A stretch of DNA of 64,000 nt from an uncultured Ectothiorhodospiraceae bacterium (GCA_964564245.1 CAZMAK010000006.1:1213-65212); one strand, 5' to 3'; shown: positions 5,212 through 63,283, counted from the stretch's first letter. The notes: generated by a model not told the origin, from the sequence alone. Made by a program: numbers and translations.

Positions 5212-5220
5212 GGCAAGCCC

Positions 5221-6407: not shown

Positions 6408-6466
6408 ACCGCCATTGTATGCAGGATGCACATTGTCGCCCAGCCGTTTTCTGGTATGTTGCCGGC

Positions 6467-7327: not shown

Positions 7328-7328
7328 T

Positions 7329-8153: not shown

Positions 8154-8223
8154 GCAGCGGTATCCGTTGACGGCGTGCGGACCCGGTGGTCCGCACGCTG
8201 GCCGTATCACGGGACAGAAGACG

Positions 8224-47252: not shown

Positions 47253-47420
47253 CGATACCGTCCATTCGGTATATCTTGCCGGTGAGCGTGTGATTCTGCG
47301 CGTTGCCGCCGTACTCCGGCAAGAGGATAACCCGGAAATTTTCGCGATCCTGGCGAGAAATATTTTTCTTGCAACCGTACGTTCCCGGATTATGCTGCGC
47401 CTTTGGTTATTGGTGATCCC

Positions 47421-48521
47421 ATGTCGCTGCTTGCAGGTGCCCGGCCGTCCGCCGTCGAAGTGTTCCCTGACCACTACCAGGCGGCGCATGACCGCTGGCA
47501 GGCGGCGCTGACCGGTCTCGCGCTGTGCACCGACCGGTGCGAATTTCCGGTCGACGGCCGCTCCCCGCAGGGTGGCGCGCTGGTGACCGACTGCGCCTGG
47601 CTGGGCCCGGACACTGCCACCCGGGTGCTGGTTGTCATCAGCGGCACACACGGTATCGAGGGGTTTGCCGGCAGCGCGGTGCTGCTGGACCTGTTGACCC
47701 GCCTGCCGGACCGGTTGCCGGACGAGCTGGCCATCCTGTGTATCCATGCCCTCAACCCGTGGGGCTACGCCTGGCACCGGCGCTGTGACGCGGAAGGCAT
47801 TGACCTGAACCGGAACTTCATCGACTTCAGCCGGCCGTTACCGGCCAACCCGGGCTATCGCGACCTGCGCGCCGCCCTGTTCGACGAAAATGCCGTCCGC
47901 CGCCAGCAGGTGCTGGATCAATACCGCCGGCAAAACGGCCAGACCGCCTACGAAATCGCCGTCAGCGGTGGCCAGTACAGTGACCCGGACGGCCCGTTCT
48001 TCGGCGGTACCCGCCCGGCACAGGGCCGCAGGACCATCGAAGACCTGATCCACCGGTACCGGCTGGCGGAACGGCGTCTGGCCGTGGTCGATGTACATAC
48101 CGGGCTGGGGGCGTACGGCGTTGGTGAAATCATCTGCGACCATGCACCGGACAGCCGCGGGGCCGCCACCGCCCGCGCATGGTACGGCGCGGAATGCACC
48201 CTGCCCGCACTGGGCACCTCCAGTTCGGTACCCAAGCTGGGCCTGCTCGACTACGCATGGCATGCCATCATGCAGGCGGACAGCTGCTTCATCACACTGG
48301 AATTCGGCACGCTGGCCACGGAAAACCTGTTTGATGTGCTGTTGCGCGATCATCGCTTCCGTGCCCTGCACGGCACACAGCCCGTCGGTCACCCGGAATT
48401 TCCGTCCCTGGTCGAGGCACTGCGCACGCACTTCTGCCCGCCGGATACGGACTGGCGCAACCGGGTACTGCACCGGGCCCGGTCGGTGATCGACCGGGCA
48501 CTGGAGGGCCTGTCATCATGA
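47421..48521 (+). CDS. M14-family zinc carboxypeptidase-like protein (AstE/AspA / DUF2817-like)
   Basis: SGTHGIEGF (HxxE zinc ligands), NPWGY...NRNF, and later DVHTGLG and ITLEFG. Divergent from the ATP-grasp gene. Confidence 0.65.
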   Translation: MSLLAGARPSAVEVFPDHYQAAHDRWQAALTGLALCTDRCEFPVDGRSPQGGALVTDCAWLGPDTATRVLVVISGTHGIEGFAGSAVLLDLLTRLPDRLPDELAILCIHALNPWGYAWHRRCDAEGIDLNRNFIDFSRPLPANPGYRDLRAALFDENAVRRQQVLDQYRRQNGQTAYEIAVSGGQYSDPDGPFFGGTRPAQGRRTIEDLIHRYRLAERRLAVVDVHTGLGAYGVGEIICDHAPDSRGAATARAWYGAECTLPALGTSSSVPKLGLLDYAWHAIMQADSCFITLEFGTLATENLFDVLLRDHRFRALHGTQPVGHPEFPSLVEALRTHFCPPDTDWRNRVLHRARSVIDRALEGLSS

Positions 48522-49624
48522 GTGATGACATCCAGCTGCGTGATGTCACGGAGGGCGACCTCGAAGCATTGCTGGCACTGGAGGAACACTCCTTCATTAC
48601 CGACCGCCTCAGCCGGCGCAGCTTCCGTCACTGGATCAGCACGGACAGCCGCGCCTTTATCGTGGCCACGGCGGGCCAGCGGCTGGTGGGGTATGTACTG
48701 GTGATCTACCACGCCGGCACCCGCCTGGCCCGGCTGTACTCGATCGCCACCGACCGGCGGTTTCGCGGACGCGGCATCGCGAGCCGGCTGATCGGGGCCG
48801 GTGAACAGGCTGCCAGCGCCAGCGGGCGTTTTTTCATGCGCCTCGAGGTCGGAATCGAGAACCGTGCGGCGATCCGGCTTTATGAATCGCTGGGCTATCT
48901 GCGCTTTGGCGTCTACGAGGACTACTACGAAGATCACGGTCATGCACTGCGCATGCAGAAACGCATCCGAAATTACCGGGTGCACGAGCAACGCGTCGAC
49001 ATCCCGTGGATTCGCCAGAACACGCCGTTCACCTGCGGTCCGGCCGCACTGATGATGGCCATGCGCGGCATCAGCAGCGACTACACGCCTTCCGAGCATG
49101 AGGAGCTGCAGATCTGGCGCGAGGCCACCACCATCTTCATGACCTCCGGGCACGGCGGCTGTCACCCGCTGGGACTGGCGCTGGCGGCCCGCCAGCGCGG
49201 TTTCCGGGCGGAGGTCTGGATGAACCAGCGCCGGCCGCTGTTCGTCGACAGCGTGCGCGACCCGAACAAGAAGCGCATCATCGAGATGGTGCACAGGGAT
49301 TACCTGCTGCAGGCCCGGCAACAGGGCATCCGCATTCACTACTCGGATATCCGCCAGGAACAGCTGGTACACGCGCTGGAGCATCACGCCATCCCGCTGG
49401 TACTGATCAGCACCTGGAGCTTCGAGCGCAAGAAATCACCGCACTGGGTCACCGTCAGCGGCCATGACAGCGAATGCCTCTACGTGCACGACCCGGATCC
49501 CGCGGAGATGAGCCAGAGCGCACTGGACTGCCAGTACCAGCCGATCGCACGTGAGGATTTCTCGCGGATATCCGTGTTCGGACAACAGCGCCTGCGCACC
49601 GCCCTGATCATATCCAGAGACTGA
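48518..49624 (+). CDS. GNAT N-acetyltransferase fused to a C39-like papain-fold cysteine peptidase domain
   Basis: N-terminal GNAT motif (RGRGIASRLIGAGEQAA). C-terminal QNTPFTCGPAALMMAM catalytic Cys context and HWVTVSGHD ... VHDPD His/Asp. ATGA overlap with the M14 gene. Confidence 0.65.
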   Translation: MSDDIQLRDVTEGDLEALLALEEHSFITDRLSRRSFRHWISTDSRAFIVATAGQRLVGYVLVIYHAGTRLARLYSIATDRRFRGRGIASRLIGAGEQAASASGRFFMRLEVGIENRAAIRLYESLGYLRFGVYEDYYEDHGHALRMQKRIRNYRVHEQRVDIPWIRQNTPFTCGPAALMMAMRGISSDYTPSEHEELQIWREATTIFMTSGHGGCHPLGLALAARQRGFRAEVWMNQRRPLFVDSVRDPNKKRIIEMVHRDYLLQARQQGIRIHYSDIRQEQLVHALEHHAIPLVLISTWSFERKKSPHWVTVSGHDSECLYVHDPDPAEMSQSALDCQYQPIAREDFSRISVFGQQRLRTALIISRD

Positions 49625-49741
49625 CCCTTTCCATGCCGCGCATTGGCGGCCGGGCTTCTTTATAATGTAACGTCAGGACCGGCAGGCAGCGCGTGCGGCG
49701 CGCCACCCTGCCGCAGCTATCAACGCTTCATGGAGACCACC

Positions 49742-51031
49742 ATGTCCGATACAGCCAGGTTGACCGTCGACGGAAAGGACTACGAACTCCCGATCGTCAC
49801 GGGTACCGAGGGAGAACGCGCCATCGACATCACCCGTCTGCGCAGCACGACGGGGCTGACCGCGCTGGATCCCGCCTTCGGCAACACCGCCAGTTGCCTG
49901 AGCAATATCACCTACATCGACGGAGACAAGGGCATCCTGCGTTACCGCGGGATCCCGCTGGAGGCCTTTGCCGCACAACCGAATTTCGTCGAGGTCGCCT
50001 GGCTGCTGATCTTCGGGCACCTGCCCACCCATACCGAGTACGAGGTATTCAGCCGCGAACTGACCGAGAACGCCAACCTCGACGAGGACATGAAACACCA
50101 CTTTGCCGGCTTCCCGCGCTCCGCGCCGCCCATGGCCATCCTGTCGGCGATGATCTCCACCCTGTCCTGCTTCCACCCGCAACTGTTCGACCTGGAAACG
50201 GAAGACCAGCTGGAAAAGGCCGCCGCGCGCCTGATCAGCAAGATCCGCACACTGGCCGCCTACACCTACCGGCGCTCGCGCGGCCTGCCCTATATCTATC
50301 CCGACCCGAAGCTGCCGTATGTCATCAACTTCCTGCACATGATGTTTTCCGAGGTATACAGTCCGTACGTGCCGGACCCGGAAGTCCGCGAGGCGCTGAA
50401 CCTGGTGCTGATCCTGCACGCCGACCACGAACAGAACTGCAGCACCTCGACCGTGCGCATGGTCGGCTCCAGCCGCGCCAACCTGTTCGCCTCGTGTGCC
50501 GCGGGCGTCTCGGCACTGTGGGGCCCCCTGCACGGCGGTGCCAACGTCAAGGTGATCGAGATGCTCGAGGCCATCCACAAGGGAAAGATGACGGCGCAGG
50601 AATACATTACCGCGGCCAAGGACAAGTCGAGCGATGTGAAGCTGATGGGATTCGGGCACCGCATCTACAAGAACTTCGATCCGCGCGCGACCATGCTGCG
50701 CGAGGTCAGCCAGAAGCTGCTTGCCAAGCTCGGCGTGTCCGACCCGCTGCTGGAGATCGCACAGAACCTTGCGGACATTGCGTTACAGGACGAATACTTC
50801 CTGGAACGCAAGCTCTACCCGAACGTGGACTTCTACAGCGGCATCATCCTGCGTGCGATCGGTATCCCGACCAACATGTTTACCGTGCTGTTCGCGATCG
50901 GCCGCCTGCCTGGCTGGATTGCGCACTGGCATGAACAGAACAGCGACCCGAACATGCGTATTGCGCGGCCGCGCCAGATCTATACCGGCAACGGCCTGTC
51001 CGGATACGTGCTGATGGAAGACCGGAAGTGA
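49742..51031 (+). CDS. gltA: Citrate synthase (type II, hexameric)
   Basis: MSDTARLTVDGKDYELPI N-terminus, GFGHRIYKNFDPRA and the HEQN active-site region. Confidence 0.9.
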   Translation: MSDTARLTVDGKDYELPIVTGTEGERAIDITRLRSTTGLTALDPAFGNTASCLSNITYIDGDKGILRYRGIPLEAFAAQPNFVEVAWLLIFGHLPTHTEYEVFSRELTENANLDEDMKHHFAGFPRSAPPMAILSAMISTLSCFHPQLFDLETEDQLEKAAARLISKIRTLAAYTYRRSRGLPYIYPDPKLPYVINFLHMMFSEVYSPYVPDPEVREALNLVLILHADHEQNCSTSTVRMVGSSRANLFASCAAGVSALWGPLHGGANVKVIEMLEAIHKGKMTAQEYITAAKDKSSDVKLMGFGHRIYKNFDPRATMLREVSQKLLAKLGVSDPLLEIAQNLADIALQDEYFLERKLYPNVDFYSGIILRAIGIPTNMFTVLFAIGRLPGWIAHWHEQNSDPNMRIARPRQIYTGNGLSGYVLMEDRK

Positions 51032-51057
51032 CCGCATGAACCAACCAGGAGCAGCCC

Positions 51058-51282
51058 ATGCCTGACACACTGATGATTCTGCCCGCCAGCGACCCGCACG
51101 CCATCCGGCTGGTGCGAGTCCCGCGTGATTACGAGGCACACGAGGCGTTTCGCCACGTTACCGGGCTGATTGCGGCGATCGAGGAAGACGACCCGGACTA
51201 CGACTGGAGCGATATCGCGGCGTCACTGGCCGACCACGGATTCGAGGTCGTCGAGTTCATCCTCGGTCCGGCGCTGGACTGA
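51058..51282 (+). CDS. Small acidic hypothetical protein (74 aa)
   Basis: AGGAGCAG ribosome-binding site 5 nt upstream, 26 nt after gltA. No motif. Confidence 0.35.
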   Translation: MPDTLMILPASDPHAIRLVRVPRDYEAHEAFRHVTGLIAAIEEDDPDYDWSDIAASLADHGFEVVEFILGPALD

Positions 51283-51306
51283 TACCCGGGCCGGGTGAAC
51301 GTCCGG

Positions 51307-51954
51307 TCAGGCGGCCGGCGACCAGCCCGCACGGCTGTCCGCGGCCAGCTCCGGCACGCCCACCGCATCCCCCTGCCAGGCCAGCGTGGTCACCGAGCGG
51401 TACGGCTGGCGTCCTGCGAGATAGCCTTCCACGGCACGCTGCGTACGCCGGTCCACCAGGTACCAGAGCGGCTGCTCCACGGTGGGCAGTTCGGCCAGTG
51501 CGGCCTTCACCCGGCTATCCCAGCCTGCGGCGAGCCGGGTGATATCACCGGGCCGGATCACCTTGCGGCACCGGCGGCAGCCGCAGTCCACCGGCATCGG
51601 CTCCCGCAGGTTGAACAGCCCGTACTCGTCGGTAATCTCTTCGCCCGCCTCGATATCGCACAGGGCGATTTCAAAACCGTAACCGGTGCTCATGGTGTTG
51701 CATTCACACCGGTGATTGACGTATTTGGCGTGGTCCCAGCTCACTACGCGCCGGCCGCGCGGATCGATATAGGAATACTTGTCGACGATCTGGCGGTGGA
51801 TTTCATCCAGCCGTTCGAACTGGCGCGGCGTCAACTCGATTTCCAGCCCGTCCCTGACATAGGTGATGGTGCCACGGGGTATGCGCCGGGTCGCGAAGAC
51901 GCCGTGACCGATGTGCACACTGACCTGCCGCAGTTCGGTGGCGGGATGAATCAT
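51307..51954 (-). CDS. SET-domain protein (putative protein-lysine methyltransferase)
   Basis: NHRCECN (NHSCxPN-type motif), EEITDEY, and a post-SET Cys cluster CGCRRCR. Confidence 0.7.
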   Translation of the reverse strand: MIHPATELRQVSVHIGHGVFATRRIPRGTITYVRDGLEIELTPRQFERLDEIHRQIVDKYSYIDPRGRRVVSWDHAKYVNHRCECNTMSTGYGFEIALCDIEAGEEITDEYGLFNLREPMPVDCGCRRCRKVIRPGDITRLAAGWDSRVKAALAELPTVEQPLWYLVDRRTQRAVEGYLAGRQPYRSVTTLAWQGDAVGVPELAADSRAGWSPAA

Positions 51955-52095
51955 GTGACCCTCCTGGCGGTCAATGTCACGGGTACGATTGAAGAATCGA
52001 CCGGCAGGCAATGCCGGGCCCGTCTCCACCCGGCTGGATGCCGGCCGGAACACTCCTCTCGCAGGTGCCTGTCACGGGTTCCGGGTGCAGGGCGG

Positions 52096-52389
52096 TCAGA
52101 GATCGAAAACGTCACTCAGCGCCTGCTGCAGCTGGCGCTCCTCGCGCAACCGCTCGATACGGCGGCGCGCCTCGGCATCGTTGCCGGCATTGGCCGCCGG
52201 CCGGGAAACCATGACCTCGAGATCCGGTATCGCCGTCAGGTCTTCCGGACCTTCATCCCATTCCGGCAGGACCGTTTCCCGGCCCTCCGGCCTGTCCGCG
52301 GCCGCCCCGGTCCCGGTTCCGGACTTGCCACGGCCGGCCCGCGCAGCCTTGCCGCCACTGCGGCCTGGACTGTGATTATTGCGCGCCAT
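52096..52389 (-). CDS. Small basic/acidic bipartite hypothetical protein
   Basis: GAGGG ribosome-binding site, Lys/Arg/Gly-rich N-terminus, acidic middle and a C-terminal helix RRRIERLREERQLQQAL. Confidence 0.35.
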   Translation of the reverse strand: MARNNHSPGRSGGKAARAGRGKSGTGTGAAADRPEGRETVLPEWDEGPEDLTAIPDLEVMVSRPAANAGNDAEARRRIERLREERQLQQALSDVFDL

Positions 52390-52693
52390 CGACGTTACCC
52401 TCGGCCCCGCTGCTGTCCGGTGCCATTGCAGCCCCGTCATCGACGGTTGCCGGTCCGGCCTCCGCGGCAGGAGCTACCGCCTCGCCCTGGTCGGCGGGAT
52501 CCGGGTAGTACCCGCCCCGCGACTCGATGCAGCCCCGCACATAGTCATTGAGCTGCTCCGGCGGCACCGCATACAGTTCCGCCTCCTGGCGACACTCCCC
52601 AGTGGGGTCTGCCGGCACCGGGGGTGCAACAACCCCAAGGCCGGCTGCAATGGCGAGGCAGACCAGTCTGCCGACGATTCTGGATTCTTTCAT
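52376..52693 (-). CDS. Small secreted hypothetical protein
   Basis: Signal peptide MKESRIVGRLVCLAIAAGLGVVA, two Cys, Pro/Ala/Asp-rich. Overlaps the downstream small gene by 14 nt. Confidence 0.35.
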   Translation of the reverse strand: MKESRIVGRLVCLAIAAGLGVVAPPVPADPTGECRQEAELYAVPPEQLNDYVRGCIESRGGYYPDPADQGEAVAPAAEAGPATVDDGAAMAPDSSGAEGNVDGAQ

Positions 52694-52817
52694 GTAGCGG
52701 TCTCCGGCAAGCTCCATAAACGGGTCGTTACGACTGGCTTATAAGGTGGCAGGAAGCACCCGGCAAACGAAATATAATTGCTTTCACGATTAACGTTGCT
52801 TATCGTCATCGCCCACC

Positions 52818-53663
52818 ATGGACATCGAACTGCTGCGCACCTTCCTCGAGGTCGTACGTACCCGCCACTTTGGCAAGGCGGCCGCGGAGCTGTGCGTCAC
52901 CCAGTCGGCCGTCAGCGCCCGTATCCGGCAACTGGAGCAGACGCTTGCCAAACCGCTGTTTGTGCGCCATCGCAACAACATCCAGCTCACGGCGGAGGGC
53001 CGGCAGTTGCGCAAGCACGCCGAGACCATCGTCCAGGTGTGGTCACGGGCACGACAGGAGACCGGGCTGGGAACGGATTACACGCGGGCACTGGCCGTCG
53101 GCGCCCTGCTGGACCTGTGGTCCACCCTGCTGGCGGGCTGGCTACCCACACTGCGGGAGCGGATGCCCGACACCGCGCTGCAGGTGGAGACCGGTACCAC
53201 CGACGCACTCATCCGCAAGCTGCAGGACAGTGTGATCGACCTGGCGATCCTGTTCGAGCCACCACAGCTACCGGCACTCGAGTTGCGGGAACTGGCAGTC
53301 ATCAATCTGGTGCTGGCCTCGACACGGCAGGGACAGACCCCGGAGCTGGCGCTTGGGCCCGGTTATGTCATGGTGGACTGGGGTACCGCCTTTGCCCAGC
53401 ATCACGCACGCCACTATCCGAACATGCCGTCCCCCGCCCTGCATATGAACCAGGGGATCCTGGTCAGGCAATACCTGCAACAGGTGCACGGGGCCGCCTA
53501 TCTGCCCGAACAGCTGCTGGCACAGGACGGCGCCGGCCGGCCGCTGTACCGCGTCGACTCGGCGGCAGTCATCGAACGGCCGGTGTACGGCGTGTTTGTT
53601 ACCGGTAATGACCGCGTCGACACCATCCGCCAGGCGCTGGACCTGGTCGCTCAACCCGCCTGA
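52818..53663 (+). CDS. LysR-family transcriptional regulator
   Basis: N-terminal HTH LRTFLEVVRTRHFGKAAAELCVTQSAVSARIRQLE and a LysR substrate-binding domain. Confidence 0.85.
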   Translation: MDIELLRTFLEVVRTRHFGKAAAELCVTQSAVSARIRQLEQTLAKPLFVRHRNNIQLTAEGRQLRKHAETIVQVWSRARQETGLGTDYTRALAVGALLDLWSTLLAGWLPTLRERMPDTALQVETGTTDALIRKLQDSVIDLAILFEPPQLPALELRELAVINLVLASTRQGQTPELALGPGYVMVDWGTAFAQHHARHYPNMPSPALHMNQGILVRQYLQQVHGAAYLPEQLLAQDGAGRPLYRVDSAAVIERPVYGVFVTGNDRVDTIRQALDLVAQPA

Positions 53664-53688
53664 CCCGCGCTGGCGGCCGGAAACGCGG

Positions 53689-54483
53689 CTACTGGCGCCG
53701 GAACAGCACGAACGAGAGATCGTCCGGCTTGTGCGGGCGTCCATCCTCCCCCGGCTGCATGCGCTCGCGACAGGCCTGTAACAGGTTCCGGCCGGCGCGG
53801 TCGAGCGGCCCCTTGCGCACCAGTTCGATGATCTCGTTGACGAACAGGTTGTCGAACAGACCGTCACTGCCCACCACCACGGTATCGTAGCGGGAAAGAT
53901 TGACGACCGGACCGATCTCGAGCCGCATGTCCGGCATGCCGACCATGTTCGAGACGATGTGACGCTCCTCGTGAAACATGGCGGCATCCGCATCGAGCAT
54001 GCCGGACGCCTCGGCATAGCCCACCGGCGAGTGCGGCACCGACTGGTACTTGAGCCTGCCGCGCTGGCCACACACCAGGATCATGGAGTCGCCCGCGTGG
54101 TAGGCACGTACCGTATCGTTGTCGATACTGACCACGGCGATGGTCGTGCCACCGCCCTGGCCACGCGCGATGACTTCCGCGTTGGCCGCCTCGATCCCGC
54201 TCAGCACGGCCTCACGCTGCGCATCACCCGACTGGCCGGTCACGCTGTCGGCAAGCTGCTGCAGGGCGAGGCCCGAGGCCAGGCTGCCGGACGGCAGGCC
54301 GCCCAGCCCGTCGGCCACGGCGACCACGGCGCTGGTCGCATCGCCCGGGATCAGCGCCGCCGCGTCCTCGTTCGGCGTTTCCCGGCCGGGGCGCGACCCG
54401 GTGTACACACAGGCCTGCCCGTCGGCCAGCGCCATGGTCAACGGCTCCGGCATGTGCATGCCCTGCAACAGCAGCACCGGCAT
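53689..54483 (-). CDS. PP2C-family Ser/Thr protein phosphatase
   Basis: GSRPGRETPNEDAAAL and VADGLGG motifs, with C-terminal DG/DN metal ligands. TGATG start/stop overlap with the upstream kinase gene. Confidence 0.75.
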   Translation of the reverse strand: MPVLLLQGMHMPEPLTMALADGQACVYTGSRPGRETPNEDAAALIPGDATSAVVAVADGLGGLPSGSLASGLALQQLADSVTGQSGDAQREAVLSGIEAANAEVIARGQGGGTTIAVVSIDNDTVRAYHAGDSMILVCGQRGRLKYQSVPHSPVGYAEASGMLDADAAMFHEERHIVSNMVGMPDMRLEIGPVVNLSRYDTVVVGSDGLFDNLFVNEIIELVRKGPLDRAGRNLLQACRERMQPGEDGRPHKPDDLSFVLFRRQ

Positions 54484-55241
54484 CAGGAATGTCCCCATTG
54501 CAGGTTTTCCAGGTACTCGCGCAGCTGCCCGGCGGTGCGGAATTTCTTCAGGATCAGGCTGCGTTTGAGGCCCATGCAGACCGCCTTGATCTCGGGCGGC
54601 TGCCGGCTGTAGTAACGCCGGCCGCCGATGGCCTCGTAGAGGATCTTCACCAGGTCCACCACGTCATCGCGGATATTCTCGGGCCTCGGCTGCCCCCAGT
54701 GAAAGAAATCCAGCAGCTTCAGGTCGAAACCCAGGCCATAGCGCTGCACCATGATGTTGTCGGTGTGCAGGTCACCGTGATATTCCTTCATCTGGTGTAT
54801 GCACTCGATCCCGGCGGCCAGCGCATGCAGCAGGTGCAGGGCCGGAAACGCGGGCAGGCGCTTGCCGGGCTGGCGGGCCAGGAACTCCGAGAGCAGCTCG
54901 CCCTCGACGAAGTCCGAAACCAGCAGGGTGATCGGCAGCTTGTGGTAGGTGATGGTTTCATGGGTGTGATACTGGATGGCAATCGGGCAATGGCGCAGTT
55001 TGTGCAGCTTGCGCGCATAGAAATTGATGGTCTTGTCACCGGGGTTGCGCTGCGGATAAAACACCTTCACGGCACGCTCGATCTGGGTCCGGTGTTCACG
55101 CACCAGGAACACCTCGCCTTCCCAGCCGCGACCCAGCAGTTTGATGACCTCGTATTTGCGCGCCAGCACGCGACCCGGCTGAATGTCGAAGCGATCGATG
55201 ACCGTAGGACGTGTCAGCTGCTTCATCATGCCGCCAAGCAT
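54483..55241 (-). CDS. Mini protein-kinase-fold protein (252 aa; Hanks/Kdo/RIO-like)
   Basis: Gly loop LGRGWEGEVFLV, catalytic Lys in AVKVF, hinge LVSDFVEGE, catalytic loop HGDLHTDNIMV and DFFHWG in place of DFG. Confidence 0.65.
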   Translation of the reverse strand: MLGGMMKQLTRPTVIDRFDIQPGRVLARKYEVIKLLGRGWEGEVFLVREHRTQIERAVKVFYPQRNPGDKTINFYARKLHKLRHCPIAIQYHTHETITYHKLPITLLVSDFVEGELLSEFLARQPGKRLPAFPALHLLHALAAGIECIHQMKEYHGDLHTDNIMVQRYGLGFDLKLLDFFHWGQPRPENIRDDVVDLVKILYEAIGGRRYYSRQPPEIKAVCMGLKRSLILKKFRTAGQLREYLENLQWGHS

Positions 55242-55297
55242 AACCCTGCCCGGTACGGGTGGCCAGCGGACATGGAAGTGTTCCGTAGCAGCGGCAA

Positions 55298-56965
55298 TCA
55301 GCCCTCGTCGTACCGGTCGGTGTTGAACCTGCTTTCCAGCAGCCGGTAGACCTCGGCAATGGTGCGCGGCTTGTTGTTGCGCTTGTGAAAGATCGTGCTG
55401 TTGCGCAGCGCCGGCCCCGGGAAAATGTCGCCGGCGATCTGGTCCGGGTTTTCGTCCAGCGCCTTCAGGAAGGAGATGGCGCCCGCGGTACCGAAGAAGT
55501 GGGTCAGGTACAGGTCCGCGCGTCCCGGTTCACGGGCCAGCGAGCTGGCCAGCCGTATGCGGCTGGTGCGCACCCGCTCCGCCGCCAGCAGGGCGGCATA
55601 GCGGGGATCGAGGCGCAGTGCCAGTACGCGCTGCAGCATTGCAGCGTCCGCCATCCGGGGCTGCGCGGTATCGCCGGCGTATTCGATGTGCACAGCCTGC
55701 TCGCCAAGCGTATAGCGGCCACCGTATCGCTTCACTGCGTCCAGCCAGGATTCCTCCTTGAACTGGTAGAGGCCGCAGGCCGTGGTGGTCTTCGCGCAGG
55801 CCTGCGGATTGAAGCTGCTCTCGATCGAGGCCAGTTCCATCAGGTAGGGAAAATCGACACCGGTACGCAGACTGGCCAGGCGGATGGCCGCCACGACACC
55901 GCTGGCGACGCTGTACCGGTGTGCGTCCTCCCGTGCAAGCACGGCAAAATCATGCAGCATCTGCCGCTGCATCTCCACCGGACTGGATTCCTGCCGGTAG
56001 AATACCAGGAATTGCCGCATGGCCTGTACGGGCCGGGTCTTGCCCGCCAGCAGGCCAAGTACCCGCAGGTCGGCGCGCATCTTCCGGTCCGGTGTTTGCG
56101 GCGGTGCTGCCGCCGCCGAAGCCACCGCGGAGGATTGCCCGCCCGGCTCGCCACGCAACAGCTTGCCGTGTGTCCCCGCCGCGGCCGGTGCCGGCTGGTC
56201 CGTCGTACCGTCGCTCCCCGGGGTCGCGGGTGTGGAAAGACCGGGAACCGGTCGATCGATCCGGGGCGGCTGTTCCAGTGCCCGGGAAAGTTTCTCCAGC
56301 AGTTCCTCGTGGGTCCGGAAGTGCGCCTGCATCAGCAGCTGCAACTTGTCGATGCCCTGGCCGATGCCGGTCAGGTCCAGCTGGCCGCCGGTGTAGTCGC
56401 GCAACACCAGCGCCGTGGTCAGCGCACCGGACAGGAACAGCAACCCGGCGATGACCGCGGCCTGCAGCAACGGGAAACGCGGGCGCACCTGCCCGCGCAG
56501 TGACTGGAGCAGCTCCTGGCTGGTCTCCAGGAAGGTGTGCGACATGTCCGACTGCAGCGATAGCAGGTTTTTCTGCTCGGCCTGCAGGTGCTGCAGTACG
56601 TCGTGTGTCAGGTACAGGTTGGATTCATGCTGGTGACGGGCATCCTCGAGCTGCGTCTCCAGCACCTGTACACGCTGATCGGTCTGCTGCTGGTGCCGGG
56701 CGGCCTGTTGCAGGGAGTCATCCAGCAACTGCGCCTGCTTGCGCGCGTGATCCCGGTCCAGCTCGATATGGCTGATCTGCAGTCGTAACCCCGCAATCTG
56801 CTCCCGGTCGCTGTCACGTGTACGCGTGTACTCCTCGCGCACCTGCGCCAGTTCCGCACCGACCCGGGCATGCTCGGCACGCACCTCGTCCAGTTCCTGC
56901 CGCAGCGCGCGCGTGCGCGGCAGGGAAAACTGTCTGATGCTTAGCAATGTGCTCTGCCAGTCCAT
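55298..56965 (-). CDS. Bitopic membrane protein with a cytoplasmic coiled coil and a periplasmic lytic transglycosylase (SLT) domain
   Basis: About 180 aa of heptad-rich, Gln/Arg/Glu-rich sequence, one transmembrane helix (LLQAAVIAGLLFLSGALTTALVL), a Pro/Ala linker, then SLT motifs ELASIESSFN and CGLYQF. Confidence 0.65.
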   Translation of the reverse strand: MDWQSTLLSIRQFSLPRTRALRQELDEVRAEHARVGAELAQVREEYTRTRDSDREQIAGLRLQISHIELDRDHARKQAQLLDDSLQQAARHQQQTDQRVQVLETQLEDARHQHESNLYLTHDVLQHLQAEQKNLLSLQSDMSHTFLETSQELLQSLRGQVRPRFPLLQAAVIAGLLFLSGALTTALVLRDYTGGQLDLTGIGQGIDKLQLLMQAHFRTHEELLEKLSRALEQPPRIDRPVPGLSTPATPGSDGTTDQPAPAAAGTHGKLLRGEPGGQSSAVASAAAAPPQTPDRKMRADLRVLGLLAGKTRPVQAMRQFLVFYRQESSPVEMQRQMLHDFAVLAREDAHRYSVASGVVAAIRLASLRTGVDFPYLMELASIESSFNPQACAKTTTACGLYQFKEESWLDAVKRYGGRYTLGEQAVHIEYAGDTAQPRMADAAMLQRVLALRLDPRYAALLAAERVRTSRIRLASSLAREPGRADLYLTHFFGTAGAISFLKALDENPDQIAGDIFPGPALRNSTIFHKRNNKPRTIAEVYRLLESRFNTDRYDEG

Positions 56966-57178
56966 GCGTTCCGGTAGCTTGCGGCGTATTGTTATTGCAC
57001 GGTGTAATGATTATGTACCGCGTCAGTATATCGCCATCGGAGCGGCGTGGTAGCTCGCCGCAAACCGCTCTGATCCCGATTTTCCCCCTATTTTCACGGA
57101 CGGGAGACAGCCGGTCTATGCGACCTAGGTCCAACAGCAGTGTTGATGGGCGTGAATCACCCAATGAATAACAATGCC

Positions 57179-57982
57179 TTACCTTCCGTTCTGAATGTTA
57201 ATTCCAAGCCAGTGGGTCCATTCCGCAAACAGCGACCGGTCGACGGCGCCCACGGCGGATCGTGGCGCCAGTGACTGGGTGAACACCGGCTCGCCATCGA
57301 GGGTACAGGCCAGCCCGCCGGCCTCCTCGAAGATCAGGTGCCCGGCCGCGTAGTCCCAGACCCTGGAGCGGCCATGCAGGTACACGTGGCTGCGTGCACA
57401 AGACAGCCAGCACCAGTCCAGTGCGACCGAGCCAAAGCTGCGCTGCGAGGCATAGGGCGTGTGTTGCACCAGCCGCGTTGCCAGTGCCGGCTGCAGGCGT
57501 TTGAGGTCGACCATTGCGGTCGCCTGGCGTAAGGGCCGCTGCACCGGTTCGAGCCGCAACGGTTCGCCGTTGAGCAATGCGCCCTGTCCGGCCACGGCAC
57601 TGAAACACTCGTCACGCAGGGGGTCATACACCAGGCCGAGCAGTACCCGGCCCGCGCTGAGCAGCGCCAGCGACACACCGAAATACGGAATGCCGACGGC
57701 AAAATTGCTGGTGCCGTCCAGCGGGTCGAGACACCAGACGGGCTGTTCGGCCGTGATGAGCCGTTGCTGCTCCGCGGCCGTCATTTCCTCACCGAGGAAT
57801 ACCGTGCCCGGCCACAGCCCGAGCAGGGCGTTTGCCACCCGCTCCTGCATGGCCAGGTCCGCCTCCGTCAGCAGGCTGCCATCGGCCTTGCGGGTATGGG
57901 TCACGCGATTGAAACGCGGCAGCAGTTCCTCACGCGCCGCGGGGACAATCACCTCCCGCAGTGCAGCCAGCTCCGGTTTCAT
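57179..57982 (-). CDS. Inositol monophosphatase-family protein (SuhB/CysQ-like)
   Basis: WCLDPLDGTSNF and WDYAAG motifs. Start set at MKPELAAL. Confidence 0.75.
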   Translation of the reverse strand: MKPELAALREVIVPAAREELLPRFNRVTHTRKADGSLLTEADLAMQERVANALLGLWPGTVFLGEEMTAAEQQRLITAEQPVWCLDPLDGTSNFAVGIPYFGVSLALLSAGRVLLGLVYDPLRDECFSAVAGQGALLNGEPLRLEPVQRPLRQATAMVDLKRLQPALATRLVQHTPYASQRSFGSVALDWCWLSCARSHVYLHGRSRVWDYAAGHLIFEEAGGLACTLDGEPVFTQSLAPRSAVGAVDRSLFAEWTHWLGINIQNGR

Positions 57983-58184
57983 CCTGCGGCCCCCGCACCC
58001 GGCCGGCCTGCCGTCCGGTGCCGAAGCAAATCTTCCATGTCCTCTCCCCTGGCGTACCGGGTCCCATGATAAGGAATCGCGCAAACCGGTTCATGTCTTC
58101 TTTTCCCGGCACCGGCAGGCAGGTGTGGTCCTGTCCACCGCACGGCCCGGTAGGCTTGCCTCCCGGGCCGTGTTATAAAGCCGC

Positions 58185-59189
58185 ATGCGCGCCATCCTGA
58201 TGACAGCCACCGGTCCTGCCCGCGAGGTCCTGCGGGAGTCCGAGGTACCCGTACCCGAGATCACCCGGCCCACGCAGATCCGCGTGCAGCTCAGGGCCGC
58301 CGGGGTGAATCCCGTCGACACCAAACTGCGCAGCCGGGGCCTGTTCTACCCGGATGCCCTCCCGGCTATCCTCGGTTGCGATGGCGCCGGCGTGGTCACC
58401 GACTGCGGCAGCGCGGTCACCCGGTTCCGCAGCGGCGATGAGGTCTGGTTCTGCCATGGCGGCCTGGGCGGGAACCCGGGCAACTATGCCGACTACACGG
58501 TGCTGGAGGAGAACGAGGCCGAACGCAAGCCGGTCTCGCTCACCTTTGCCGAGGCCGCCGCGCTGCCACTGGTACTGATCACGGCGTGGGAGGCTCTGTT
58601 CGACCGCGCCCGGCTCAGCGGCGAGCAACGCGTCCTGATCCATGGCGGCGCGGGCGGCGTCGGTCATGTCGCTATCCAGCTGGCCCGGTCGGTGGGCGCC
58701 ACGGTCGCGACCACGGTGAGCGACGAGGCCAGGGCAAAGCTGGTCCGCTCGCTGGGCGCCGAACACGTGATCGACTATACCCGGGAGGATTTTGTTGCCG
58801 CGACGCGCGACTGGAGCGGGGGCGCCGGTACGGATGTCATCCTCGATACCGTGGGCGGCCAGGTATTCCGCGACAGCATGGGCGCAGCCCGCGTGTATGG
58901 ACAGCTGGTCACCCTGCTCGATCCCGGTACCGGGGTGAACTGGAAGGAGGCCCGCGACCGCAACCTCTCCGTCAGCTTCACCCTGATGCTGACGCCGATG
59001 CTGCAGGACCTGCCGAAGGCCCGCGCACACCAGCTGGAAATCCTGCGCCAGTGCGCCATCCTGATCGACAGCGGGAAACTCCGGCCGGTGATCGCGGAAG
59101 TCCTGCCGCTGGCCGAGGCGGCCAGCGCCCACGAGCGGATCGAGGCCGGTCACCTGGCCGGCAAGCTCGTGCTGTCGACCGGCGACTGA
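58185..59189 (+). CDS. Zinc-type alcohol dehydrogenase-family NAD(P)H:quinone oxidoreductase (MDR)
   Basis: GxGxxG-like VLIHGGAGGVGHVAIQLAR and N-terminal GVNPVD. Confidence 0.8.
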   Translation: MRAILMTATGPAREVLRESEVPVPEITRPTQIRVQLRAAGVNPVDTKLRSRGLFYPDALPAILGCDGAGVVTDCGSAVTRFRSGDEVWFCHGGLGGNPGNYADYTVLEENEAERKPVSLTFAEAAALPLVLITAWEALFDRARLSGEQRVLIHGGAGGVGHVAIQLARSVGATVATTVSDEARAKLVRSLGAEHVIDYTREDFVAATRDWSGGAGTDVILDTVGGQVFRDSMGAARVYGQLVTLLDPGTGVNWKEARDRNLSVSFTLMLTPMLQDLPKARAHQLEILRQCAILIDSGKLRPVIAEVLPLAEAASAHERIEAGHLAGKLVLSTGD

Positions 59190-59206
59190 GCACCGCCCGC
59201 GCCGCG

Positions 59207-59872
59207 TCAGGCGCGGGTCCTGAACCAGCCGGTGATACTCATGCGGTGCCGCGTCGAGGGCAACACCTCGTGCAGGTAGCGTGCGCTCAGAAAGGTGACC
59301 AGCTGGCCACCCAGCGGCAGGATTTCCTCGTAATGCCGCTCGTCACGCGCATCGGTATAGAGCCGCAACTGACCGCCATCGGCTGCCTGCCAGTCCTCGT
59401 TCAGGTAGAGGATGCAGGATACGCAACGGGTACCCATGTCGCGGAACTGGTCGAGGTGCTTGCGGTAGTACGTACCCGGCGGATAGACCGCGAGGTGAGC
59501 CTCGAATTCGAACAACCCGAGGTAGAGCGTACCGTTGATGGCCAGGCGCAATTGCTCCAGCACGGCCAGGTAGTACCGATGCGCCGGGTCACACTGTGAC
59601 GGATCCAGCCAGCGCACCCGGTCGGTACGTACCGACGGCCTGAACTGCAGGCCGGCACCGCGGCCGACGCCGGCCGGTCGGAAGTCACCCCGCTGCCAGT
59701 GTGCCTGTAATTCATCGCGAGCCTGTCCGGTCAGGACGGCGGGCAGGAAGCCCGGTGTGACACACCAGCCCTGCTCGTCCAGCGTAGCGGCGATCTGCGC
59801 ACACAGGGGATCCACCGTGGCATACAGCTCGCACGGGGCGGGTTCCGAATGATGGACGGATATGGGATACAC
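59207..59872 (-). CDS. 2OG-Fe(II) oxygenase (prolyl-4-hydroxylase-like)
   Basis: YRKHLDQ ... CILYLNEDWQAADGGQLRLY carries an HxD...H triad-type P4Hc signature. The start is an inferred GTG; the ribosome-binding site is weak, so the start is uncertain. Confidence 0.55.
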   Translation of the reverse strand: MYPISVHHSEPAPCELYATVDPLCAQIAATLDEQGWCVTPGFLPAVLTGQARDELQAHWQRGDFRPAGVGRGAGLQFRPSVRTDRVRWLDPSQCDPAHRYYLAVLEQLRLAINGTLYLGLFEFEAHLAVYPPGTYYRKHLDQFRDMGTRCVSCILYLNEDWQAADGGQLRLYTDARDERHYEEILPLGGQLVTFLSARYLHEVLPSTRHRMSITGWFRTRA

Positions 59873-59989
59873 CTGTCGAAAGGCGCATGGGGCAGGCGAT
59901 TCTGCGCGCGGGATTATGCGCCGCCCGGGGCAAACACGCCATACCTGCTGGCCGGCAAGGGATTGCCTGTTCCGTGTTATGAAATTAGC

Positions 59990-60125
59990 CCCCCGCTGTA
60001 CAAACCTTGCGTCCCTTCTCCCCCCGGGAGAAGGACAGGATGAGGGGATCAAAAATCAGGCAGTTAACTGAATCTGATCCCCTCACCCCAGCCCTCTCCC
60101 GGAGGGAGAGGGCGTTTGTGGGACT
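59990..60125. repeat. Three tandem GC-rich palindromic hairpins (REP-like / terminator block)
   Basis: ccttctcccc-cc-ggggagaagg, gaggggatcaaaaatcaggcagttaactgaatctgatcccctc and ccctctcccgg-agggagaggg lie between two same-strand genes. Confidence 0.5.
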
Positions 60126-60141
60126 GTAATGAATATACCGG

Positions 60142-60753
60142 TCACATACCGTTCTTGAACTGGTCGGTGTCGGTGGCGCCGCTGGCGCGTACCTGGCGCA
60201 GCGCCAGGCCGTACTGCTTGAGGATACCCAGCGCCCAGCGCAGGCGTGCGCGGAAATACTCGTCCGCGCCGGGATCATTCTGTGCCGGATCGTCATTCAA
60301 CACCCGCTCGACGTGGCGTACGATCACGTGCTCGGGGATGTAGCACAGGCGCGAGTTCTTGTAGCTGCTCATGCGCAGTTCCGCCACCGGGTAGGCCCCG
60401 CCATCGCCGGCGGACACGGACACGATCAGGGCCGGCTTGTGGCCCAGTTCGTTGCGCCCAAACAGCAGGAAGAAGTTCTTCAGCCCGGCCGGTACCTGGC
60501 CATGCCATTCCGGCGTGACCACCACGAACGCGTCACTGGAGGACAGCTCGGCACGGATCGGATCGAGCAGCGGCGGCCACTTTTCGCCCCCCTCCCAGAC
60601 CCCCATGTCCCACAACGGCAACGGGTTGTCGGCGAGGCTGATCAGCGCGGATTCCTCGCAGATGCCGTCATCCAGCATATTCCGGATCTGGCGTGCGACC
60701 TTGAGACTTTGTGCCTGTGCACGGTGACTGCCGCAGATAACGGTGATTTTCAT
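60142..60753 (-). CDS. NADPH-dependent FMN reductase (flavodoxin-like fold, ChrR/YieF-like)
   Basis: MKITVICGSHR with a Ser/Arg phosphate-binding loop. 203 aa. Confidence 0.7.
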   Translation of the reverse strand: MKITVICGSHRAQAQSLKVARQIRNMLDDGICEESALISLADNPLPLWDMGVWEGGEKWPPLLDPIRAELSSSDAFVVVTPEWHGQVPAGLKNFFLLFGRNELGHKPALIVSVSAGDGGAYPVAELRMSSYKNSRLCYIPEHVIVRHVERVLNDDPAQNDPGADEYFRARLRWALGILKQYGLALRQVRASGATDTDQFKNGM

Positions 60754-60849
60754 GCCTTCTCCTCGGGTTTGACCATCACACCGGTCCGCCATTGTACGAC
60801 GGCCGCCAGATGCGTCCGCTAATCCGCTGCGCAGGTCCCTGCTTTCGCG

Positions 60850-61731
60850 CTAGCCTTTCTTTTCGGATTCCAGCAGCCGCCGCATCTCGTCGAAGCGGTC
60901 GCGCTCCCTGTCGCCGACCTGCGGGAAGTGCATCTCCAGCGAGTGCATGGCGCGAACCACGATGTCCGCCACGCACATGCGCATATAGGACTTGCTGTCG
61001 GCCGGGATCGCATACCAGGGTGCCCAGGGACGCGAGGTCTCCCGCAGCGCCTGCTCGTAGGCGTGCATGTAGTCGTCCCAGTAGCCGCGCTCGAGCACGT
61101 CACTGCTGGAAAACTTCCAGTTCTTCTCCGGCGTCTCCAGCCGGCTCAGAAAACGCTGGCGTTGTTCCTCCCGGGAGACATTCAGCCAGAATTTCAGCAC
61201 CACGGTGCCGTTGCGCGCAATGTGCTCCTCGTGGGCGCGAATCGACGCATAGCGGTCCGCCCAGAGGGTGTCATGGCTGGTCGCGGATGGCAGCCGCTGG
61301 TTGTCCAGGATCGCGGGATGGACCCGCACGATCAGCACCTCTTCGTAGTGACTGCGGTTGAACACGCCGATACGGCCGCGTTGCGGCAGGCGGCGGGTCG
61401 TGCGCCAGAGGAAGTCGTGGTCCAGTTCCTCGCTGCTTGGCTGCTTGAACGAATATACCTCGCAACCGGCCGGGTTGATGCCCTGCAGCACGGCGCGAAT
61501 GGTGCTGTCCTTGCCGGCCGCGTCCATACCCTGGAACACCAGCAGCATGGCATGCCGGTCATCGGCGTAAAACATGCGTTGTAGTTCATCGAGTTCACCA
61601 ATCAGTCGCTGCAGTTCCTTCTCGCGTCCGTTCTTGTCCGGCACGTTGTCCGGCCGCTTCGTCGACGCCTTGCCGACATCGAAAGATCCGTCAAACGGAA
61701 CCAGCCACTGGCTTTCCGGTGCTGCAAACAT
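60850..61731 (-). CDS. Polyphosphate kinase 2 family (polyP:nucleotide phosphotransferase)
   Basis: Walker A FQGMDAAGKDSTI, Walker B LVFNRSHYEEV and the PPK2 lid region. AGGGGGA ribosome-binding site. Confidence 0.85.
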   Translation of the reverse strand: MFAAPESQWLVPFDGSFDVGKASTKRPDNVPDKNGREKELQRLIGELDELQRMFYADDRHAMLLVFQGMDAAGKDSTIRAVLQGINPAGCEVYSFKQPSSEELDHDFLWRTTRRLPQRGRIGVFNRSHYEEVLIVRVHPAILDNQRLPSATSHDTLWADRYASIRAHEEHIARNGTVVLKFWLNVSREEQRQRFLSRLETPEKNWKFSSSDVLERGYWDDYMHAYEQALRETSRPWAPWYAIPADSKSYMRMCVADIVVRAMHSLEMHFPQVGDRERDRFDEMRRLLESEKKG

Positions 61732-61825
61732 GCACTTCCCCCTGTGTTATGCTGATCAAGGCATCCTCTGAACCCGGGATGCCTGAAGTGTAACGTGAAC
61801 CCGTCCGGATTTCCCGCCTGCCTGT

Positions 61826-63283
61826 ATGCATAACCTGTCCTCGTTGCCGTTCAGCAATTCCTTTGCCGCCCTGCCGGCTGCGTTCTACGCGCGAGTGCTG
61901 CCGACACCGCTGGAGCGCCCGGCCCGGCTGGTGCATTTCAACCCGGCGGCGGCCGCCTTGCTGGAACTCGATCCGGCCGTGTCCGCCGATCCCGCGTTCG
62001 CCGACATCTTCAGCGGCAACCGTCCCTGGCCCGGCACCGACCCGGTCGCGATGCGCTACAGCGGGCACCAGTTCGGCCACTATGTGCGCCAGCTTGGTGA
62101 CGGTCGCGCCATCGTGCTGGGCGAAACCGTCAACAGCCACGGGCAACGCTGGGAGATCCAGCTGAAGGGCAGCGGCCAGACCCCGTATTCACGTGACGGC
62201 GACGGCCGTGCAGTGCTGCGTTCCACCATACGGGAATACCTGTGCAGCGAGGCCATGCACGGACTGGGCATCCCGACCACGCGTGCGCTGTGTATCACGT
62301 CCAGCGACGACGAGGTATACCGCGAGCGCATCGAACCGGCTGCGGTGCTTACCCGGCTGGCGCCCACGCACCTGCGCTTCGGTTCGTTCGAGGTGTTGTT
62401 CTACAACAACCGGCATGAGGAGATCCGCGTGCTGGCCGACTACCTGCTGCACCATCACTTCCCGGAGGCGCTGGACGAACCGGACCCGTATGTGGCCCTG
62501 CTGAACCACGTGGTGGACCGCACCGCTCAACTGCTGGCCCGCTGGCAGGCGGTCGGATTCGCACACGGCGTGATGAACACCGACAACATGTCGGTGCTGG
62601 GACTGACGCTGGATTACGGGCCGTTCGGATTCATGGAGGCGTTCGATCCCGGCTTTATCTGCAACCATTCCGACCATTACGGCCGTTACGCCTTCGACGC
62701 GCAGCCGCAGGTGGCGCTGTTCAACCTGAGCTGTTTTGCCCAGACCCAGCTGCCGCTGCTGGAGGTCGAGGCCGCAAAGGCCGCACTGGAAGGTTTCCAG
62801 CCGGCCTGCACGCGTTACTACGACACGTTGATGGCCGGCAAGCTCGGTTTCCCGGCCGCCAGCGCGGATACCGTGACACTGGCCGGGGACCTGCTGGCAC
62901 AGATGGCGGACAGCGGGACCGATTACACCCGCCTGTTCCGGGCACTGGGCGAGATTGCGCTCGGACGCCAGGACGGCCGTGACCAGTTCGCAGACCGCGA
63001 CCGCTTTGCCCGCTGGCGGGAAGATTACCTGGCCCTGCTGCAACCGCACGTACGACTCGACGCACACTGGCTGGCACGGATGCACGGGACCAATCCGAAA
63101 TACATCCTGCGCAACTATCTCGCACAGGTCGCCATCGATGCGGCGGAACAGCAGGATTACAGCGAGGTGGACCGCCTGTTCCGCCTGCTGCAACGGCCGT
63201 TCGACGAACAGCCGGACATGGAACGCTACGCCGCCCCGCCCCCGGACTGGGCGCGCGACATCCAGGTCAGTTGTTCATCGTAG
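61826..63283 (+). CDS. selO: Protein adenylyltransferase SelO (YdiU/UPF0061)
   Basis: GHQFGHYVRQLGDGRAIVLGE, HGVMNTDNMSVLGLTLDYGPFGF and the flipped-kinase catalytic motifs. 485 aa. Confidence 0.85.
   Translation: MHNLSSLPFSNSFAALPAAFYARVLPTPLERPARLVHFNPAAAALLELDPAVSADPAFADIFSGNRPWPGTDPVAMRYSGHQFGHYVRQLGDGRAIVLGETVNSHGQRWEIQLKGSGQTPYSRDGDGRAVLRSTIREYLCSEAMHGLGIPTTRALCITSSDDEVYRERIEPAAVLTRLAPTHLRFGSFEVLFYNNRHEEIRVLADYLLHHHFPEALDEPDPYVALLNHVVDRTAQLLARWQAVGFAHGVMNTDNMSVLGLTLDYGPFGFMEAFDPGFICNHSDHYGRYAFDAQPQVALFNLSCFAQTQLPLLEVEAAKAALEGFQPACTRYYDTLMAGKLGFPAASADTVTLAGDLLAQMADSGTDYTRLFRALGEIALGRQDGRDQFADRDRFARWREDYLALLQPHVRLDAHWLARMHGTNPKYILRNYLAQVAIDAAEQQDYSEVDRLFRLLQRPFDEQPDMERYAAPPPDWARDIQVSCSS

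Follow-up and report, generated by a model that had tools for sequence, protein, structure and literature searches.

A minimal Hanks-type kinase and a PP2C phosphatase as a probable two-gene switch beside a membrane-anchored transglycosylase

A 64,000-nucleotide stretch of DNA from an uncultured Ectothiorhodospiraceae bacterium (GCA_964564245.1 CAZMAK010000006.1:1213-65212), called the window hereafter and always meant at its full length, carries on its minus strand a run of three genes that encode an SLT-type transglycosylase, a small protein with a protein kinase fold, and a PP2C phosphatase. A first-pass annotation, made by inspecting the sequence alone, described these genes as co-directional and tightly spaced, with a 56-nt gap followed by a TGATG overlap, and the coordinates of the open reading frames (ORFs) confirm this description in full. 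The identities given to the three products are likewise upheld by Pfam matches above the respective cut-offs, and the motifs quoted for the transglycosylase (ESSFN, GLYQF) and for the kinase (HGDLHTDN, DFFHWG) are found where the annotation had located them. The three genes and the spacer between the first two are listed below.

55298-56965, minus strand: SLT-type transglycosylase gene (ORF call), encoding a 555-aa bitopic inner-membrane protein
55242-55297, minus strand: spacer between the transglycosylase and kinase genes, 56 nt, without a promoter-like or terminator-like consensus match
54483-55241, minus strand: kinase gene, encoding a 252-aa stand-alone minimal Hanks-type Ser/Thr kinase
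53689-54483, minus strand: PP2C gene, encoding a 264-aa Stp1-like PP2C (PPM) Ser/Thr phosphatase from a TGATG start

The stop codon of the kinase gene (TGA, 54485-54483) shares its A with the ATG at 54483 to form the TGATG junction, which has the sequence CCTGATGCCG. The longest ORF for the phosphatase begins slightly upstream (53689-54498, 269 aa from the first ATG), and the overlap with the kinase gene becomes 16 nt if this start is used. All three proteins have many homologues, and therefore the three ORFs are not a chance pattern. Base composition is uniform along the window (GC fraction 0.60-0.68), and the closest genomes are those of uncultured Gammaproteobacteria labelled Ectothiorhodospiraceae or Thiogranum. 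A scan of positions 53400-57400 for promoters and terminators yielded no match within the spacer between the transglycosylase and kinase genes, and a scan of positions 52000-58500 against Rfam yielded no match. When this spacer is aligned across five relatives, conservation is confined to the start-codon region. A GC-rich inverted repeat, CTGCCC…GGGCAG, which has no U-tract, is present in the equivalent spacers of two close relatives (L003, at about 5945-5975, and L048); the spacer in the window carries no such repeat. It is possible that all three genes reside on one transcript in this window.

Profile searches and a predicted structure together identify the second gene product as a shortened Hanks-type Ser/Thr kinase of about 245 aa. 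Its score against Pfam Pkinase (PF00069) is 48.9 bits (cut-off 31.7), with positions 1-142 of the 263 in the profile matched. A profile built from 27 family members retrieves Staphylococcus aureus PknB (4EQM) as the best PDB sequence match (E 9e-17), and the AlphaFold2 model (predicted local distance difference test score, pLDDT, 94.8) has the bilobal fold of protein kinases, for which the best Foldseek matches are PknA, PknB, and PknI of Mycobacterium tuberculosis (E about 1e-12, template modelling score 0.6-0.74). The resemblance to Kdo, RIO, and APH kinases that was initially perceived did not survive the corresponding profile searches, in which Pkinase fared far better. Pfam Kdo (PF06293) reached 21.9 bits (cut-off 21.3) over kinase residues 136-201 only, APH scored 17.4 (cut-off 23.2), and RIO1 gave no match at E ≤ 0.1. 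Among NCBIfam equivalogs, the scores were 13.9 for KdkA (cut-off 142) and 16.4 for Bud32 (TIGR03724; cut-off 125). The protein does resemble Bud32, RIO, and Kdo kinases in being small and in having no activation segment, but equivalog scores this far below the cut-offs, a PknB-type fold, and a location outside any lipopolysaccharide (LPS) or KEOPS context set it apart from them. Membership in the Kdo, RIO, APH, or Bud32 families was thus rejected on profile scores and fold. For KdkA and WaaP, the gene context also counts against the assignment, as there is no LPS-core setting and the surrounding genes encode IMPase, LysR, QOR, and the like.

The kinase motifs comprise a glycine loop (residues 37-42), K59, HGDLHTDN (155-162), DFFHWG (178-183), and D193. 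In an alignment of 251 family members, G37, G39, G42, K59, D157, N162, and D178 are each conserved in 97-100% of the sequences, with values of 98% for D157, 99% for N162, and 100% for D178. The catalytic loop had been called degenerate in the first-pass annotation, but these three residues are all retained. The departures from the Hanks pattern lie elsewhere. The position of the αC glutamate aligns to K78 in a hidden Markov model alignment to S. aureus PknB, and this residue is lysine in 97% of the 251 members; across the same set, no conserved acidic residue is found between positions 60 and 91. Furthermore, D178 is separated from the subdomain IX aspartate, D193, by 15 residues, whereas the aligned spacing in S. 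aureus PknB is 40, and in the model a strand (171-176) is followed by a short loop (177-186) and then directly by a helix (187-204). Because of this short spacing and the topology of the model, the activation loop, the P+1 loop, and the APE motif are judged to be absent. A small sub-clade of the family (P0196, P0218, P0228, P0237, and P0249) has additionally lost K59 and D157, with HGELR, HGAIT, or VGELM at the catalytic loop, and from their sequences these proteins look like pseudokinases derived from an active family.

The family is large, with at least 74 representatives at 50% identity (E ≤ 1e-30) and at least 3,983 clusters at 90% identity (E ≤ 1e-10). Most of its named members come from uncultured Gammaproteobacteria, and the source annotations offer only 'protein kinase' or 'Bud32', the latter being used by JGI for several homologues. 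Across metagenome-assembled genomes (MAGs) labelled Thiogranum, Ectothiorhodospiraceae, or unclassified Gammaproteobacteria, the kinase is 69-90% identical and occupies stable chromosomal contexts. Such high conservation over the whole protein suggests that its protein-protein contacts are constrained. No description of this mini-kinase family was found in the literature searched. An atlas of bacterial Ser/Thr kinases, released as a preprint, reports activation-loop deletions in some actinobacterial pseudokinases (10.1101/2025.01.12.632604). The 'DLHK' pseudokinase family from the same atlas was considered as a possible match and rejected, since its members are multi-domain proteins without the VAIK lysine (10.1101/2025.01.12.632604).

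The third gene product matches Pfam PP2C_2 (41.3 bits, cut-off 24) and PP2C (35.5 bits, cut-off 20.3). Its closest PDB matches are Stp1 from Streptococcus agalactiae (2PK0, E 6e-13) and Stp1 from S. aureus. The NCBIfam profile for the Stp1/IreP equivalog (Stp1_PP2C) gives 93.4 bits, which is below its cut-off of 230, so the protein is not an equivalog. The PPM motifs are present as NED (38-40), DGLGG (58-62), GDS (131-133), SDG (206-208), and DD (254-255), and on this basis the protein is classed as an Stp1-like PPM phosphatase in which the conserved aspartate motifs are intact. PPM enzymes act on phosphoserine and phosphothreonine.

The relationship between the kinase and its neighbours was assessed in a species-level sample of 29 genome loci, of which 28 had enough downstream sequence and 25 had enough upstream sequence to be scored. 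A PP2C gene lies directly downstream of the kinase gene in 26 of the 28, and in every one of the seven loci with called genes the end of the first coding region and the start of the second share 1-16 nt. In the two exceptions (L025 and L026), a rhomboid gene takes the place of the phosphatase gene. The mini-kinase of these two loci (64% identity; in L025, the region at 4041-7592) is situated between genes for a K+ channel (RCK/TrkA_N) and a cyclic-nucleotide-binding protein on one side and the rhomboid protease gene on the other. More generally, the more distant kinases, at 60-64% identity, are solitary and have no PP2C gene next to them.

The transglycosylase gene is a far less constant companion. 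It is found upstream of the kinase gene in 8 of the 25 species-level loci and is missing from that position in the remaining 17. Other genes that precede the pair encode an aldo-keto reductase, an HD-GYP protein, a phosphoribulokinase, or FeoB. In four Ectothiorhodospiraceae MAGs, a co-directional feoB gene lies directly upstream of the kinase gene in place of the transglycosylase gene (L015, 1509-3500; L020, 3675-5822; L021, 3773-5854; L022, 3719-5791), and the same probably applies to a fifth (L019), which has a comparable ORF. The eight loci with the transglycosylase gene also share the IMPase gene and, where the sequence reaches that far, LysR and QOR genes, with a SET-domain gene in two. 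The transglycosylase gene is therefore one element of a collinear block of functionally unrelated genes that runs through QOR, IMPase, transglycosylase, kinase, PP2C, and LysR, and on to SET where the locus extends. Within this block, sequence conservation is highest for the kinase (81-90% identity) and lowest for the transglycosylase (41-62%).

Even where the block exists, the first junction of the triad is frequently broken. In L038, a TetR gene and, on the opposite strand, an FA_hydroxylase gene are located between the transglycosylase and kinase genes, and L005 has a gap of equal length; in L044 the intervening gene is TauE, and the adjacency is also interrupted in L049, L051, L060, and L066. 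Outside the closest relatives, the spacer between the two genes either is 155-311 nt long or contains whole genes, which points to a capacity for independent expression of the kinase-PP2C pair. A second sample, gathered from metagenomes with the transglycosylase profile, comprised 15 loci that had a full-length coiled-coil homologue and at least 2 kb of downstream sequence. The kinase gene was adjacent in four of these, 1-1.7 kb away in another four, and absent from seven, including one (L070) that still has the IMPase gene upstream. Among homologues that match the transglycosylase domain only, none has the kinase gene nearby. When flanking ORFs were clustered in 37 loci, no recurrent third gene was found beside the kinase-PP2C pair, and only clade-specific neighbours emerged, namely the transglycosylase block, FeoB, and LysR.

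As reconstructed from these gene neighbourhoods, the distribution is a nested one: the mini-kinase family contains a clade with PP2C, and this clade contains a sub-clade with the IMPase-transglycosylase neighbourhood. The explanation that we favour, with confidence somewhat better than even, is that the kinase and phosphatase constitute an autonomous two-gene switch and that the transglycosylase is a separate, lineage-specific neighbour. The transglycosylase is probably incidental to the switch, and neither its obligate partner nor its target. The two genes would form an operon, apparently with translational coupling, whose products are soluble cytoplasmic proteins. Given the residues that it retains, the kinase most likely binds Mg-ATP and transfers phosphate, with Ser/Thr residues as targets, whether in its own chain or in at least one cytoplasmic protein whose gene lies elsewhere, and PP2C would reverse this phosphorylation. 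Because the kinase has no activation segment, it would not be switched by activation-loop phosphorylation and would recognize substrates in a non-canonical manner. Control would probably be exerted through expression, through the ratio of kinase to phosphatase, or through partner binding. The transglycosylase most likely functions independently in peptidoglycan remodelling; it would lie next to the pair through lineage-specific gene order and may share a transcript with it in this genome.

Among characterized systems, the pair is closest to the operons of Stk1 and Stp1, in which a PknB-like kinase gene and a PPM phosphatase gene are likewise adjacent and co-directional. The kinase best matches PknB, PknA, and Stk1, and the phosphatase is nearest to Stp1. 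There are also clear differences. The kinase of the window is only 252 aa long and lacks a transmembrane segment as well as any sensor domain, PASTA or other; it has neither the activation segment nor the αC glutamate, and its gene precedes that of the phosphatase. Both proteins fall below the cut-offs of the profiles for this system (38.7 versus 450 for PknB_PASTA_kin, 93 versus 230 for Stp1_PP2C). The pair is a variant of the common Stk1/Stp1-type kinase/PP2C operon, with an unusually reduced kinase that fails two Hanks hallmarks.

The transglycosylase itself has the architecture that the first-pass annotation had proposed, with a coiled coil in the cytoplasm, a single membrane-spanning helix, and a domain in the periplasm. 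The AlphaFold2 model (mean pLDDT 74.7) shows a long helix, a hydrophobic helix, and a globular domain (residues 290-555, pLDDT 80-93). These parts correspond to the following positions.

56495-56920, minus strand: cytoplasmic coiled-coil helix, residues 16-157, a single long helix in the model, with weak matches to SMC/Rad50 coiled coils
56393-56467, minus strand: transmembrane helix, at about residues 166-191 (LLQAAVIAGLLFLSGALTTALVL), with the model helix at 167-191
55301-56098, minus strand: periplasmic globular domain, residues 290-555, gp144-like

An RPRF motif ahead of the transmembrane helix suggests, by the positive-inside rule, that the N terminus faces the cytoplasm, and in the model a disordered linker rich in proline and alanine (residues 232-288) leads to the globular domain. 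Pfam SLT matches the protein with 23.9 bits (cut-off 21.3), and PHROGs, which assigns phage transglycosylase families, gives a transglycosylase match of 95 bits. The ESSFN and GLYQF motifs occupy residues 382-386 and 398-402. The C-terminal 235 residues match the phiKZ endolysin gp144 by sequence (PDB 3BKH, E 5e-24), and gp144 is also the sole strong fold match in the PDB (E < 0.001), with a Foldseek E value of 2.4e-11 and 26% identity over 274 columns that span essentially all of the 268-residue gp144. In 26 homologues of the transglycosylase, E382, Y486, and H489 do not vary; they are the equivalents of gp144 E115, Y197, and H200, whose roles were demonstrated by mutagenesis (PMC5406664). 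By this alignment, E382 is assigned as the catalytic glutamate, equivalent to gp144 E115.

In many homologues, a PG_binding_1 motif follows the membrane helix and precedes the catalytic domain (PF01471 in P0147, P0164, P0188, and P0190); gp144 likewise has this domain at its N terminus. In the protein of the window, DLRVLGLL...AMRQF is kept and the DG..G segment is gone, and Pfam gives no match for PG_binding_1. From sequence and model, the portion in the periplasm is most aptly called an endolysin module of the gp144 type, in which an apparently degenerate peptidoglycan-binding motif is followed by a GH23 (family 1) lytic transglycosylase domain. Its residues 290-555 align with essentially all of gp144, but the protein differs from the phage enzyme in being encoded on the chromosome, where an IMPase gene is a stable neighbour, in being fused to a coiled coil and a transmembrane anchor, in having a threonine at the equivalent of the second-site residue E178, and in the apparent degeneration of the peptidoglycan-binding motif. 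Some homologues have a longer coiled coil that contains one or several repeated blocks, each of about 40-130 residues, within alignment columns 100-330 (P0143, P0144, P0147, P0150, P0151, P0159, and P0161), and in these length variants the N-terminal 25 residues and the transglycosylase domain are conserved.

Several observations weigh against the interpretation of the pair as an autonomous switch. In the window and its closest relatives, the gap between the transglycosylase and kinase genes is only 56-60 nt and is free of terminator-like sites, and with so short a gap co-expression of these two genes is plausible here. Their shared neighbourhood recurs in one clade (L001-L008, L027, L028, L038, L039, L043, and L044) and holds down to about 72% kinase identity (L044), which extends beyond a very recent accident. 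The transglycosylase has a cytoplasmic domain of about 165 aa with a conserved N-terminal motif that could receive a signal, and a precedent exists in the Firmicutes for a membrane transglycosylase under kinase control (PMC12369325). A different sort of objection is that a kinase with lysine for the αC glutamate and no activation segment could be a weak or non-canonical catalyst.

The co-directional arrangement, the short gap, the recurrent neighbourhood, the cytoplasmic domain, and the precedent would all accord with a single module of three genes, in which the kinase phosphorylates the cytoplasmic coiled coil of the transglycosylase and PP2C reverses this, such that peptidoglycan cleavage is gated from inside the cell. 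The first-pass annotation had a similar arrangement in mind when it described a peptidoglycan-cleaving protein wired to a phosphorylation switch, and it named a lack of synteny among related genomes as an outcome that would refute the idea. The comparison across genomes gave this outcome: the triad is syntenic in one sub-clade only and is often interrupted there. We regard the three-gene module as unlikely. The adjacency on which it depends is embedded in a larger block of unrelated genes, and it is disrupted by further unrelated genes in the loci named above (L005/L038, L044, L049, L051, L060, and L066); each component also occurs without the other, as 17 of the 25 kinase loci have no transglycosylase gene upstream and 7 of the 15 full-length transglycosylase loci have no kinase gene. 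Thr18 of the N-terminal motif does not track with the kinase, being absent from P0169 even though its locus (L044) has the kinase gene, and the variation in coiled-coil length is more in keeping with a spacer than with a specific docking domain.

The precedent comes from Enterococcus faecalis, in which the membrane lytic transglycosylase MltG is phosphorylated on its cytoplasmic segment by IreK (PMC12369325), and the concept of a wall enzyme under such control is therefore not without precedent. The E. faecalis system (IreK/IreP-MltG) and the locus of the window have in common a bitopic peptidoglycan-cleaving enzyme with a cytoplasmic segment and, in the same organism, a Hanks kinase and a PP2C phosphatase. 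The enzymes are nonetheless of different types: the transglycosylase of the window is a gp144-like GH23 protein, whereas MltG belongs to a separate MltG family, and the kinase of the window has no membrane segment or PASTA sensor. Moreover, the coupling here is suggested by a lineage-restricted gene order only, and the comparative data argue against it. PrkC of Clostridioides difficile and the hydrolase CwlA are reportedly another example of a kinase paired with a wall enzyme. The most elaborate form of the three-gene idea holds that an undescribed class of kinases, lacking the activation loop and carrying the αC lysine, forms a minimal phospho-switch with a dedicated PP2C, and that this switch has been recruited in this Ectothiorhodospiraceae-like lineage to control a domesticated phage-endolysin-type lytic transglycosylase from the cytoplasm through its coiled-coil tail. 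We give this proposal little credence.

A second alternative retains the gene pair but questions the chemistry, proposing that the mini-kinase is not a conventional protein kinase but a small-molecule kinase with a fold that merely descends from Hanks kinases, an ATPase, or else a pseudokinase or scaffold, with PP2C acting on some other target or on the mini-kinase itself. The replacement of the αC glutamate by lysine in 97% of members, with no conserved acidic residue in αC, is what such a protein might be expected to show, as are the deletion of the activation segment, P+1 loop, and APE motif (a spacing of 15 versus 40), the existence of a sub-clade without K59 and D157, and the kinases at 60-64% identity that have no PP2C neighbour. 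This proposal is improbable in our estimation, since conservation of K59, D157, N162, D178, and the glycine loop at 97% or more speaks for nucleotide binding and catalysis, and the close pairing of its gene with an overlapping PPM phosphatase gene points to a phosphoprotein as the product.

There is very little to recommend a third alternative, a mobile conflict module in which the kinase and PP2C would serve as an anti-phage or toxin/antidote kinase system: the top PADLOC and NCBIfam matches of the kinase are indeed defence kinases (mad6, 62.6 bits; PD-T4-6, 56 bits; MADS6, 46 bits), but they extend over no more than the generic kinase core and are far short of the curated cut-offs (46 versus 460 for MADS6, 24 versus 990 for PglW of BREX), the other components of those systems are not present, and the kinase family is 69-90% identical in stable chromosomal contexts, with uniform base composition in the window.

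Two further known modules were considered and set aside. Partner switching of the RsbU/SpoIIE type uses GHKL-type kinases and STAS proteins; this architecture does not correspond to that of the locus, and no STAS family member was found among the scanned neighbours. The PpkA/PppA/Fha module of the type VI secretion system (T6SS) likewise brings together, in a proteobacterium, a Hanks kinase and a PP2C phosphatase. PpkA, however, is a large protein that sits in the membrane and has a periplasmic domain, whereas the kinase of the window is a soluble protein of 252 aa, and there is no FHA or T6SS gene within about ±6 kb. The first-pass annotation had noted that T6SS and Fha genes are missing, and none was found among the 13 neighbouring genes scanned (47403-63283).

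Some features of the flanking DNA deserve mention. A LysR-family gene (52818-53663, plus strand) is convergent to the PP2C gene, with 25 nt between the two stop codons. The same convergent arrangement is found in the transglycosylase clade and also in three Thiogranum loci (L012-L014, at about 7970-8810, minus strand) with 42-45% identity, and hence the LysR neighbourhood reaches further than the transglycosylase neighbourhood. Between the LysR gene and the SET-domain gene lie two small minus-strand ORFs, one of 113 aa with a hydrophobic N terminus (52376-52717) and one of 114 aa (52096-52440), neither of which has a Pfam match, and small genes occupy the equivalent interval in L039 and L043. 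On the other side of the triad, a PPK2 polyphosphate kinase gene (60850-61731, minus strand) is divergent from a gene for the protein adenylyltransferase SelO (61826-63283, plus strand, 437 bits), which has a pseudokinase fold, and an FMN reductase gene (60142-60792, minus strand) adjoins these two. On the LysR side of the triad, a gene for a DUF2817 protein (47403-48521, plus strand) overlaps by 4 nt the gene at 48518-49624 (plus strand), whose product joins a GNAT acetyltransferase to a C39-like peptidase domain (DUF3335); these look like a coupled pair.

If the transglycosylase were nevertheless controlled by the kinase and phosphatase, it would be the first lytic transglycosylase of a Gram-negative bacterium found to be under Ser/Thr phosphorylation, and the locus would represent a Gram-negative counterpart of IreK-MltG signalling, although the comparative evidence makes this unlikely. 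Of modest, secondary interest is the existence of a chromosomal gp144-type endolysin module joined to a membrane anchor and to a coiled coil that lies in the cytoplasm and varies in length. The main interest remains with the mini-kinases, an uncharacterized, large, and very well conserved family of minimal Hanks-type kinases. They provide a compact test case for catalysis and control without an activation loop and an αC glutamate, and for the processes regulated by a self-contained kinase/PP2C pair in these bacteria.

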